A DNA stretch of 64,000 nt from a bacterium (lineage in GTDB: Bacteria > Zhuqueibacterota > Zhuqueibacteria > Oceanimicrobiales > Oceanimicrobiaceae): NCBI GenBank assembly GCA_046757025.1, contig JBHHXN010000010.1, positions 1 through 64,000 on the forward strand, read 5' to 3'. Each line of letters begins with the position of its first letter. Positions within the stretch are counted from its first letter, which is position 1. Under the pieces are notes generated by a model. The model saw only the letters and a list, made by a program, of their open reading frames with translations. It searched no databases and had not been told where the DNA came from. Both the position numbers and the translations under genes were made by a program. Shown here one piece after another: positions 3,619-48,776 of the stretch.

Positions 3619-3773
3619 ACGCTTGAATGAAAACCCGAAAAATGCGCGTTTTACTACCCTCGTCGCAAAGGTGCCTCTTCGACAAAGCTCTGGCGCGGCT
3701 CCGCCGGGCCAAGCTGGAATTCACCCTCGGCCAGGAGACCTTCGGGAAGAATAGGTTGTTTTCGTTCACACAT
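3619..3773. mobile_element. Family-A miniature TIR element, copy 1
   Basis: Ends acgcttgaatgaaaac / gttttcgttcacacat; perfect 6-bp direct repeat gaatta (3613-3618, 3774-3779); body homologous to 22460-22612, 28324-28479 and 46418-46572. Confidence 0.85.
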
Positions 3774-22459: not shown

Positions 22460-22612
22460 GTCTGAACGAAAACGACCCTATCTTCCCGAATGCCTCCTGG
22501 CCGAGGATGAATTCACGCTTGGCTCGGTGCGGCCTTTCCTGAGCTTTGTCGAAGGGACGCCTCAGCAAAGAGGTTCTTAAATCGCGCATTTCTCGAGTTT
22601 TCGTTCAGACAC
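22460..22612. mobile_element. Family-A miniature TIR element, copy 2 (opposite orientation to copy 1)
   Basis: TIR gtctgaacgaaaac / gttttcgttcagac; body homologous to the other A copies. Confidence 0.88.
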
Positions 22613-28322: not shown

Positions 28323-28323
28323 T

Positions 28324-28479
28324 GTGATTAAACGAAAACCACCCGATCTTCTCGAAGGCCTCCTGGCCGAGGGTGAATGCCTGCTTGGCTTGGTGGAGCC
28401 TGTCCAGAGCTTTGTCAAAGGGACGCCCTCGCGAAGAGATTATTTATATCGCGCATTTCTTGAGTTTTCGTTCAGGCGC
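28324..28479. mobile_element. Family-A miniature TIR element, copy 3 (left end interrupted by the D element)
   Basis: gtgattaaacgaaaac ... gttttcgttcaggcgc; outer flanks taaatt (28088-28093) / taaata (28480-28485). Confidence 0.88.
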
Positions 28480-41704: not shown

Positions 41705-42040
41705 TTAGGATTGAGCCACGCTGGTTACTTTACTGGTTTCGGCTTCAAATTTGGTTTGAATGAGCTGATTTAATCCCCGGCGAATTCTTTCGGGACTTAT
41801 GGAAATGATATCACAACATTTTTCAAATGAAAAAATATAATCCGAATTTTTTTCTTCATACAGCCAAAACTTTGCACTCTTACAATTTTTTTCAAGCTGA
41901 CTCAGTTCATGATCCAGACCCTTAATTTTTAATTGATTGATTTTATATGGATTGTGGCCGTCCAAGTAATCTTTTACCGCCCGTAAAACTACTGAAACTA
42001 CCAGCTTACGTTCTGTGATTTTATTAACTCTTATATCCAT
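41705..42040 (-). CDS. Hypothetical protein (111 aa)
   Basis: AT-rich isolated ORF with AGAGG RBS; pattern AVKDY...A..W...FSFE..C......E.IR.GL. Confidence 0.7.
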   Translation of the reverse strand: MDIRVNKITERKLVVSVVLRAVKDYLDGHNPYKINQLKIKGLDHELSQLEKNCKSAKFWLYEEKNSDYIFSFEKCCDIISISPERIRRGLNQLIQTKFEAETSKVTSVAQS

Positions 42041-45841: not shown

Positions 45842-45953
45842 GCAATCATTAAAATCATTGTTTTCTTTAATCATTAAAATATCAAACGAGATAGAAAAAT
45901 CTAACCCATGCAATTGAACTTTTTTCAAAATAGCCTTGAAAGGAAATTTTAAA

Positions 45954-46409
45954 ATGCCTCAAAAATCAAAAAGTTATGAAATAGGACAAAATCTTGAGAC
46001 TTATTGTAACAAATGTAAAACCGAAATGCACCATGTTATCACCAAAATTAAGGACGATGAAATAAGCAAAGTCATGTGCAATGGCTGCAAAACTACTCAT
46101 AAATATTACGCAGAAACACCCGAGACGCCCAAGAAACGCGGCCCGGGACGGCCCCGAAAAACAGAGACCGATTCAACTGCCGCTCCTAAAAAACGAGGAA
46201 GAAAAAAAGATTGGCCGAGTCTGGTTTCAAAGCTGGACGAAAGTGAAATTGTGGATTACGACTTCAACGAAGATTTCACCGAAACTCACGCCATTCGGCA
46301 CAAAAAATTCGGTGTAGGCGTCATCACAAAAATTCTCGCCGATAACAAAATTGAAGTCGTGTTCGAAGATGAAAAGAAAGTTTTAGCTCAAAACTACACC
46401 GAGTTTTAA
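45954..46409 (+). CDS. Hypothetical protein: zinc ribbon, basic AT-hook-like linker and Tudor-like C-terminus
   Basis: CxxC...CxxC, KKRGPGRPRK, HKKFGVG motifs; AAGGA RBS before ATG at 45954. Confidence 0.8.
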   Translation: MPQKSKSYEIGQNLETYCNKCKTEMHHVITKIKDDEISKVMCNGCKTTHKYYAETPETPKKRGPGRPRKTETDSTAAPKKRGRKKDWPSLVSKLDESEIVDYDFNEDFTETHAIRHKKFGVGVITKILADNKIEVVFEDEKKVLAQNYTEF

Positions 46410-46417
46410 CTTTATTA

Positions 46418-46572
46418 GTGTCTGAACGAAAACTCGAGAAATGCGTGATTTAATAAGTGCTTCTCGAAGGCGTCCCTTCGACAAAACTCAGGACAGGCCC
46501 CGTCGTGCCGTGCAGAAATTCACCATCGGCCAGGAGGCCTTCGGGAAGATGGAGTCGTTTTCGGTCAATCAC
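46418..46572. mobile_element. Family-A miniature TIR element, copy 4
   Basis: gtgtctgaacgaaaac / gttttcggtcaatcac; lies between convergent genes; flanks ttatta / gaatta. Confidence 0.88.
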
Positions 46573-47814: not shown

Positions 47815-47908
47815 TAGTTTCTAATTTAAGGAGGTTCCTGAATCGGAACGAAAATTCATGAATGCGTAAAAAGGATTGAATTTGCGGCCGGCTCCTTGGT
47901 TATCTTCC

Positions 47909-48009
47909 GACGAACCGCGCGGCGCTGACCCACGAGCACGCAGGCAGGGAGCCCCGCCGTGTGGGGCGGACAGCCCGCACGCGCAGTTGGGTCGAGTGCC
48001 GTGTTCCGC
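47909..48009 (-). other. Solitary attC-like recombination site (candidate)
   Basis: Minus strand GCGGAAC-5nt-ACTCGACC...GGTCAGC-8nt-GTTCGTC; very GC-rich relative to its surroundings. Confidence 0.5.
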
Positions 48010-48023
48010 CTCGCGCGGAACTT

Positions 48024-48118
48024 GTGCTTGAACGAAAACGACCCTATCTTCACGAAGTCCTCCTGGCCGACGGTGAATTCCTTCTTGGCTCGGCGGGGCC
48101 GTTCCTGAACTTTGTCGA
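48024..48118. mobile_element. Family-A element, truncated copy 5
   Basis: gtgcttgaacgaaaacgaccctatctt...tttgtcga matches copy 2; second TIR absent. Confidence 0.8.
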
Positions 48119-48218
48119 TGGCTCATTTTCTTGTGGCTGAATTGACTCAGCCACTGCCACACACATCCTTTCATAAATGACTTACCAACGACATAGCAAA
48201 CTAAAAATAAGCATCACT

Positions 48219-48776
48219 CTACGTCATTTCTTGATTTTTCCAATATGCCTCTAATTCCACACCTAATCCATCCGCTAATCGATTGACAAAATTAAAATAA
48301 GCAGTTATTTGATTGATATCCAAAATTGCCGAATCCATGAAGCCAGCCTGGCACAATTTATCGACATCCTGACGGGTGATTTCCCAAGGTGTTTTTGTGA
48401 GCTTCACAGCATACTCCAACATATCCCGATCGTTTGCAGAAATCGGCGCTTGACGATAATCCCTTTGCAATTGTTTAAATAATTCGGTTTCTTTGGTTAG
48501 CCGACAGAGACCCGCTCCGTGATGCACAATTCAGTAGTGGCATTGATTGGTGACCGAAACCACCACCGCAATCATTTCTCTTTGTACTCTACTCAATTCC
48601 GATCTACCAAACATCAGAGTGCGGTAAAGCAGGTAATGTCCATCCAACGAAGGCGGATTCAGGCTGTGAATTTTCAAAATGTTGTCAACCACTCCTTCTG
48701 CCGATTTGTGCTTATCATAAAAGGCTTTCAAATAGCCTGCGGCTTGATGTTCATTTATGACTTTTATCCAGGACAT
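48219..48776 (-). CDS. AhpD/carboxymuconolactone-decarboxylase-like peroxidase-related selenoprotein (CxxU), 185 aa by TGA read-through
   Basis: Two in-frame ORFs joined by TGA at 48531-48533: REMIAVVVS..NQCHY-U-IVHHG; C-terminal half has YFNFVNRLADGLG. Confidence 0.88.
48504..48520 (-). promoter_or_regulatory. Bacterial SECIS-like hairpin
   Basis: ACGGAG-CGGGU-CUCUGU stem-loop beginning 10 nt after the UGA. Confidence 0.65.

Follow-up and report, generated by a model that had tools for sequence, protein, structure and literature searches.

Whether the TGA that interrupts a minus-strand frame at positions 48219 to 48776 ends a gene or is read as an amino acid is the question raised by this locus of the window, by which we mean the whole 64,000-nt stretch of DNA analyzed here. 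A reading of the sequence alone had proposed that the TGA encodes selenocysteine (Sec) in an AhpD-like CxxU enzyme, without assigning a strand. Comparison with homologs makes it highly probable that there is one gene, in which UGA is decoded as Sec to give a 185-residue CxxU oxidoreductase of the AhpD fold, its likely role being the reduction of peroxides or similar oxidants. This interpretation draws on features that can be observed directly, namely, a frame that runs on past the TGA, membership in the family, Sec genes in the genome, a conserved TGA, and a conserved hairpin. The features of the locus are as follows.

48219..48776, minus strand: AhpD-like peroxidase-related selenoprotein gene (TIGR01926), 185 aa, with predicted relay E67, C79, Y81, U82, H86
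48531..48533, minus strand: in-frame TGA, codon 82, very likely Sec; TGA in 97 of 99 distinct homologous loci
48540..48542, minus strand: TGC, Cys79, which opens the CxxU motif; invariant in 30 of 30 aligned proteins
48504..48520, minus strand: predicted bacterial SECIS by comparison with homologs; one of its six stem pairs is G-U, and its 5-nt loop is CGGGU

A single frame with one internal TGA

Translation of the minus strand from 48776 to 48219 yields 185 residues followed by TAA. The sole in-frame TGA occupies 48533-48531 (U82), in the context N77-Q-C79-H-Y-U82-I-V-H85-H86. The string TGC CAC TAC TGA ATT GTG CAT CAC, cited in the sequence-only reading as placing UGA at the second Cys of the motif, is present as quoted, and its claim that the frame runs 103 codons past the UGA is borne out by the 103 residues that follow U82. 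Also as anticipated there, standard gene calling returns fragments: ORF calling under table 11 splits the gene into ORFs of 81 and 102 aa, and both pieces are present in a public collection of 15 billion proteins, in which the full-length 185-aa protein was not found.

The read-through protein passes the TIGR01926 model with 148.5 bits (cut-off, 81.8 bits), residues 2 to 173 aligning with positions 1 to 173 of the 178-position profile; scored separately, the two halves fail, with 53.4 and 73.9 bits. The read-through protein also passes the Pfam CMD model, PF02627. The TGA aligns to the second Cys of the CxxC motif in Cys-containing homologs (CFYC in 2PFX, CYYC in 3C1L, and CVYC in 6K40). Membership in either of two other models, NF041238 (AhpD_rel_CFYUT; 48.9 bits against a cut-off of 175) and NF053654 (YciW-related; 27.4 bits against a cut-off of 310), was rejected, both scores falling far below the cut-offs.

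Conservation of the TGA among homologs

Matches to the gene were recovered from 26 of the 60 relatives searched, and these returned 31 loci. Placement succeeded for 29, with TGA in 27 and a Cys codon in 2; the two unplaced loci (L049 and L050, with 25 to 26% identity) gave no tblastn alignment and were excluded from all codon counts. When one genome per species was scanned, 350 relatives were confirmed; the best 80 of these 350, drawn from KSB1, Calditrichota, Acidobacteriota, Chloroflexota, and other groups, have TGA at every one of their 80 loci. When the loci are pooled and 10 duplicates are removed, TGA is present in 97 of 99, and neither TAA nor TAG occurs at the codon 82 site in any of the 99. 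The pairing of Cys with TGA that was to be sought at this codon is therefore found, since Cys homologs exist as well, and the case that was to speak against Sec, a genome devoid of Sec machinery with homologs that never have TGA, was not seen.

Of the two Cys-containing copies, that in G011 (96% complete) has TGT and no hairpin, and no selA, selB, or tRNA-Sec exceeds the cut-off in that genome; this copy, with 45% identity, is possibly not an ortholog. The other, in G055, is 39% identical, and its genome has Sec genes. In the 80 cross-phylum genomes, selA exceeds the cut-off in 71 (a raw count), selB or tRNA-Sec occurs in 6 of the 9 without selA, and at least one Sec component is present in 77. 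A search for genomes that bear the TGA but no Sec machinery left only three of the 80, all draft assemblies (G062, G100, and G101, in which no selA, selB, or tRNA-Sec was detected), so that the case is not supported; G062 has its locus in common with G007 (76% complete). Because selA is present in 56 of the 61 genomes of this class, co-occurrence among the relatives is itself weak evidence.

A conserved hairpin downstream of the TGA

The hairpin to which the sequence-only reading had pointed, ACGGAG-CGGGU-CUCUGU at SECIS distance, is present at 48520-48504, where it overlaps codons H86 to C91. Its 6-bp stem, its 5-nt loop with a G, and a spacing of 16 nt between the UGA and the start of the loop satisfy the bSECIS geometry given in one figure legend (loop of 3 to 9 nt, stem of 4 to 16 bp, G in the first two loop positions, and spacing of 16 to 37 nt; PMC13188914, Fig. 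2 legend). The energy given for the bSECIS model is -7.5 kcal/mol or lower (PMC13188914); the hairpin region of the window reaches -5.4 kcal/mol over a 36-nt stretch, over which most orthologs range from -6.5 to -10, and longer stretches around the window hairpin reach -8 to -10 with a different fold.

By itself, the window hairpin is no better than chance. Three of the four stretches folded lack it in their minimum-energy structure, the z-scores against shuffles are positive for all four (0.38 to 1.61), and a stem of at least 6 bp also arises in 53% of synonymous recodings of the peptide encoded here. Its support derives, therefore, from comparison with homologs. Silent third positions within the stem codons are 0.95 to 1.0 fixed across 23 orthologs, as opposed to 0.33 to 0.78 at 16 other four-fold sites, and a stem of at least 6 bp occurs in 80 of 97 loci; over 300 synonymous recodings the corresponding number is 20.8 ± 4.0, and 32 at most. 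At two positions, G is invariant despite variation in the amino acids encoded there. Across 52 hand-picked rows, 87.5% of cells pair over the six pairs, and changes on both sides of a pair occupy 10 cells versus 3.1 ± 1.5 in shuffles (0 of 500). The sequences are related, and the recoding and shuffle controls thus overstate significance. Registers slid along the alignment pair in 28 to 55% of cells, and the +2 slide, 45% paired, yet contains 13 double-change cells. RNAalifold independently predicts five of the six pairs.

The window stem contains a G-U pair in place of the G-C usual in homologs, a substitution that changes Arg91 to Cys and that is also observed in Chloroflexia locus L110; read-through may be less efficient owing to this pair. 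As judged by its conservation across homologs, the hairpin fits SelB-dependent decoding.

Selenocysteine machinery in the genome

A Sec codon at this site implied selA, selB, selC, and selD elsewhere in the genome (5.96 Mb, 94.8% complete), and a search for selA, selB, selD, and tRNA-Sec found every component above its curated cut-off. These comprise selA on C1 (580.8 bits), selB on C73 (362 bits), and two selD genes (406.4 and 379.7 bits), the lower-scoring of which contains a TGA and adjoins selB on C73. The other selD (L009, G000:C344) is of the Cys type and is fused behind a desulfurase-like domain in a protein of about 750 aa; we take this domain to be NifS/cysteine-desulfurase-like. The tRNA-Sec on C28 passes RF01852 with 65.3 bits, and ARAGORN lists tRNA-SeC(tca) as the only tRNA with a TCA anticodon. 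Within the window, an Rfam scan recovered only four tRNAs.

The genome also encodes a paralog (L024; G000:C45:10468-11001, minus strand) that is 46% identical, scores 152.3 bits with TIGR01926, and has CHY-TGA followed by a compensated 7-bp hairpin. This type of paralog, with its TGA, recurs in about ten relatives.

A genome-wide filter for TGA and a crude hairpin passed 1,555 of 16,314 read-through frames and was rejected as a definition of the selenoproteome, being too unspecific. The scan turned up a likely selenoprotein of the UxxC type on C2 and two further likely selenoproteins on C90 and C158. Presumably, the C2 protein resembles PrdB/GrdB, that on C90 is HdrA-like, and that on C158 is like the large subunit of NiFeSe hydrogenase.

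Predicted structure and chemistry

An AlphaFold2 model, with Sec entered as Cys, has a pLDDT of 93.5 and a pTM of 0.88, and its active-site helix comprises H80-94. The closest structures are Mlr4105 (3C1L), Deinococcus radiodurans DR1765 (6K40), 2PFX, 2PRR, and 2OYO (TM scores of 0.86 to 0.90 with 27 to 36% identity; 0.89 to 0.90 for 3C1L and 6K40), and more distant matches include pneumococcal AhpD, Pseudomonas aeruginosa PA0269, Bmp8, and sestrin. Residues E67, C79, Y81, U82, and H86 are invariant in all 30 aligned proteins. When mapped by spacing, they coincide with the relays described for PA0269 (E36/C48/Y50/C51/H55; PMC3141380) and Mycobacterium tuberculosis AhpD (E118/C130/H132/C133/H137; PMC3141380, PMC6300522).

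These correspondences suggest a mechanism. SelB with Sec-tRNA would bind the hairpin loop 16 nt downstream of the UGA and insert Sec82, which in the predicted fold would occupy the place of Cys133 of M. tuberculosis AhpD and Cys51 of PA0269, beside the E67-H86 relay and Cys79. In AhpD, the second Cys of the CxxC motif is the attacking residue. The Sec82 selenolate would likewise attack the oxidant, Cys79 would resolve the product, forming a selenenylsulfide that a cellular dithiol would then re-reduce.

A role in reducing peroxides or other oxidants is likely. The DR1765 mutant is H2O2 sensitive, with both Cys residues important (as summarized in a review, PMC8945050), but PA0269 reduces H2O2 only weakly (PMC3141380), a point against the role. 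A role as an AhpC adaptor was rejected: a search with TIGR03137 gave one weak match (37.4 versus 272 bits) in the 94.8%-complete genome, and since no AhpC above the cut-off was found, the protein is probably, on the gene content of the genome, a stand-alone enzyme rather than an adaptor. A lipoamide dehydrogenase (Lpd) gene does exceed the cut-off, and the reductant may therefore be the lipoamide/Lpd system.

Genomic neighbors

In the window family, a divergent Tex gene lies upstream in 12 of 17 loci and a YaeI-like metallophosphoesterase gene lies downstream on the same strand in 13 of 17. Both recur in this family only and were rejected as conserved partner genes; the arrangement reads as inherited gene order. 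Elsewhere, the neighbors vary, and their identities come from scanning one representative per group. A Ni-SOD gene is a neighbor in four Chloroflexota loci (L074, L082, L093, and L131). In Acidobacteriota, glycosyltransferase genes matching TIGR04282 occur in five loci (L071, L072, L085, L087, and L096) and those matching TIGR04283 in four (L072, L079, L091, and L094); both models are titled 'arsenosugar biosynthesis' glycosyltransferases. An iodotyrosine-deiodinase-like gene is present in 25 of the 61 genomes of the class.

Alternative explanations for the interrupted frame

If the TGA were a true stop, the halves would be translated separately, by reinitiation at the in-frame GTG two codons on, and would then assemble. 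In its favor, besides this GTG, the codon directly after the TGA is most often ATG in homologs (20 of 97), but an ATG, GTG, or TTG lies within three codons of it in just 39 of 97, which argues against a conserved second gene. A stop here would also remove the second redox residue and, in the model, sever the active-site helix, and no locus has replaced TGA with TAA or TAG, making separate translation very improbable. A nonsense mutation, pseudogene, or assembly error peculiar to this genome might seem to explain the weaker hairpin and the two Arg-to-Cys differences from the consensus (C91 and C142). Each of these changes, however, recurs in unrelated genomes, and that at codon 91 leaves the stem paired as G-U (L110 and L131). 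Moreover, both halves are intact, mean identity to the family orthologs is 0.68, inside the range of 0.67 to 0.75, and the TGA is shared by homologous loci over several phyla. Conservation thus largely refutes an error private to this genome, the chance of which we judge to be minute. Decoding of UGA as Cys or Trp, through general read-through or a variant genetic code, would accord with the alignment of the site to Cys in homologs, but the only TCA-anticodon tRNA listed is the one that passes the tRNA-Sec model, the adjacent genes are complete under table 11, and the conserved hairpin matches SelB-dependent decoding. We hold decoding as Cys or Trp to be extremely improbable. These comparisons make it very likely that the UGA is Sec within a single gene of this family.

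An alternative that retains Sec concerns the substrate, with the enzyme acting as a reductive dehalogenase or a scavenger of halogen oxidants instead of as a peroxidase. The debrominase Bmp8 (6OHI, 6OHJ) has the same fold (TM score, 0.79; 17% identity; profile E value, 3.6e-6), and the iodotyrosine-deiodinase-like gene occurs near 11 of the 99 loci, all in Acidobacteriota and Chloroflexota. In four of these (L100, L112, L114, and L127), this flavoprotein gene is directly upstream on the same strand, at about 11 nt; in the other seven (L080, L085, L087, L110, L118, L122, and L123), it lies within 3 kb. The copy from L127, the only one tested, gives a match to iodotyrosine dehalogenase 1 with an E value of 1.7e-50. 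Against this, 88 of the 99 loci have no deiodinase neighbor within flanks of about 1.5 to 4 kb, neighbors change by lineage, and DR1765 and the uncharacterized peroxidase-related structures are far closer than Bmp8. We regard dehalogenation as unlikely because no deiodinase gene was found in the window genome (E ≤ 1e-30; 94.8% complete) and because such a gene is present in 25 of the 61 genomes of the class. A literature search found no paper joining 'iodotyrosine deiodinase' and 'AhpD'. Were the dehalogenase assignment true, this widespread Sec-dependent AhpD subfamily would represent, in bacteria and on the AhpD fold, the equivalent of Sec deiodinase chemistry, working beside iodotyrosine deiodinase.

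Repeats and other sequences in the vicinity

A high-copy repeat lies just downstream of the gene, at 48020-48121, and recurs within the window.

3679..3768, 22463..22555, 28323..28416, and 46475..46572: other copies of the repeat

Genome-wide, it has 112 blastn matches at E ≤ 1e-5 and a consensus of about 135 nt; the best copies are 80 to 91% identical to the window copy at 48020-48121, which misses the final part. Another copy lies near the paralog, at C45:11408-11498. The repeat has no Rfam match, and among 25 relatives it was found in G013 only, where there are also many copies; it may belong to the MITE- or REP-like elements. A 117-aa ORF that overlaps it (47821-48174) is probably spurious. 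Abutting this repeat is a second, GC-rich one (47918-48021) with 3 to 5 copies (e.g., on C51 and C23), which terminates in a terminator-like hairpin at 48003-48021. A promoter and terminator scan at the locus was uninformative.

Two other ORFs in the window have no Pfam match: one of 157 aa (45936-46409, plus strand), with two CxxC-like Cys pairs near its N terminus, and one of 111 aa (41705-42040, minus strand). In a homologous locus, L110:4001-4102 is a diverged duplicate of the first ~34 codons of the gene, situated 173 nt upstream of the intact copy.

Comparison with known systems

The protein shares its five-residue relay (Glu, Cys, Tyr/His, Cys/Sec, His), identically spaced, with M. tuberculosis AhpD and PA0269, as their relays are given in the sources cited above. 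Sequence identity to PA0269 is low, at 19%, and whereas the M. tuberculosis AhpC/AhpD system has an AhpC partner, the window genome has none above the cut-off. With DR1765, Mlr4105, 2PFX, 2OYO, and 2PRR it has in common the fold and the NxCxYC-x3-H motif, but Sec substitutes for the second Cys of these Cys-containing structures. The window subfamily also has an extra His, His85, where 2PFX, 3C1L, 6K40, and the paralog carry Ala or Ser. The selenoproteins modeled by NF041238 and NF053654 have the CxxU motif in common with the window protein, but the similarity is distant, and NF041238 proteins are about 357 aa in length, compared with 185 aa here.

That AhpD-like selenoproteins were already known, as the sequence-only reading had it, is confirmed by the published surveys (PMC1088965, PMC2398784, PMC13188914). 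A 2005 study of the Sargasso Sea described 27 sequences of AhpD-like CxxU selenoproteins (PMC1088965), members in two bacterial genomes followed in 2006 (PMC1794560), and the GOS data contain 299 'AhpD-like 1' sequences (PMC2398784). In Table 1 of a 2026 review, the entry 'AhpD-like protein, TIGR01926, CxxU' is 'Predicted with high confidence', that is, a predicted selenoprotein for which that entry lists no experimental proof (PMC13188914). The family is thus among the most abundant predicted bacterial selenoproteins, by its GOS count (PMC2398784), and biochemical work on any member would be worthwhile. The window gene or near kin of it may already be catalogued in BSepDB (PMC13326102).

The window gene is very likely an ordinary member of this family, predicted since 2005, and the immediate consequence is a corrected annotation, public calls having cut one gene into fragments of 81 and 102 aa. 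Relatives of the same family are labeled candidate division KSB1, an assignment based on identical loci. Like the known TIGR01926/COG2128 CxxU proteins, for which Cys homologs are widespread, the window protein has one Sec in a CxxU motif and a downstream hairpin with a G in its small loop, and it does not differ from them in kind. Its genome has a second, TGA-bearing paralog, and the sole peculiarity of the window copy among members of the family is its weakened SECIS stem, a naturally occurring G-U version of an element that is highly conserved.
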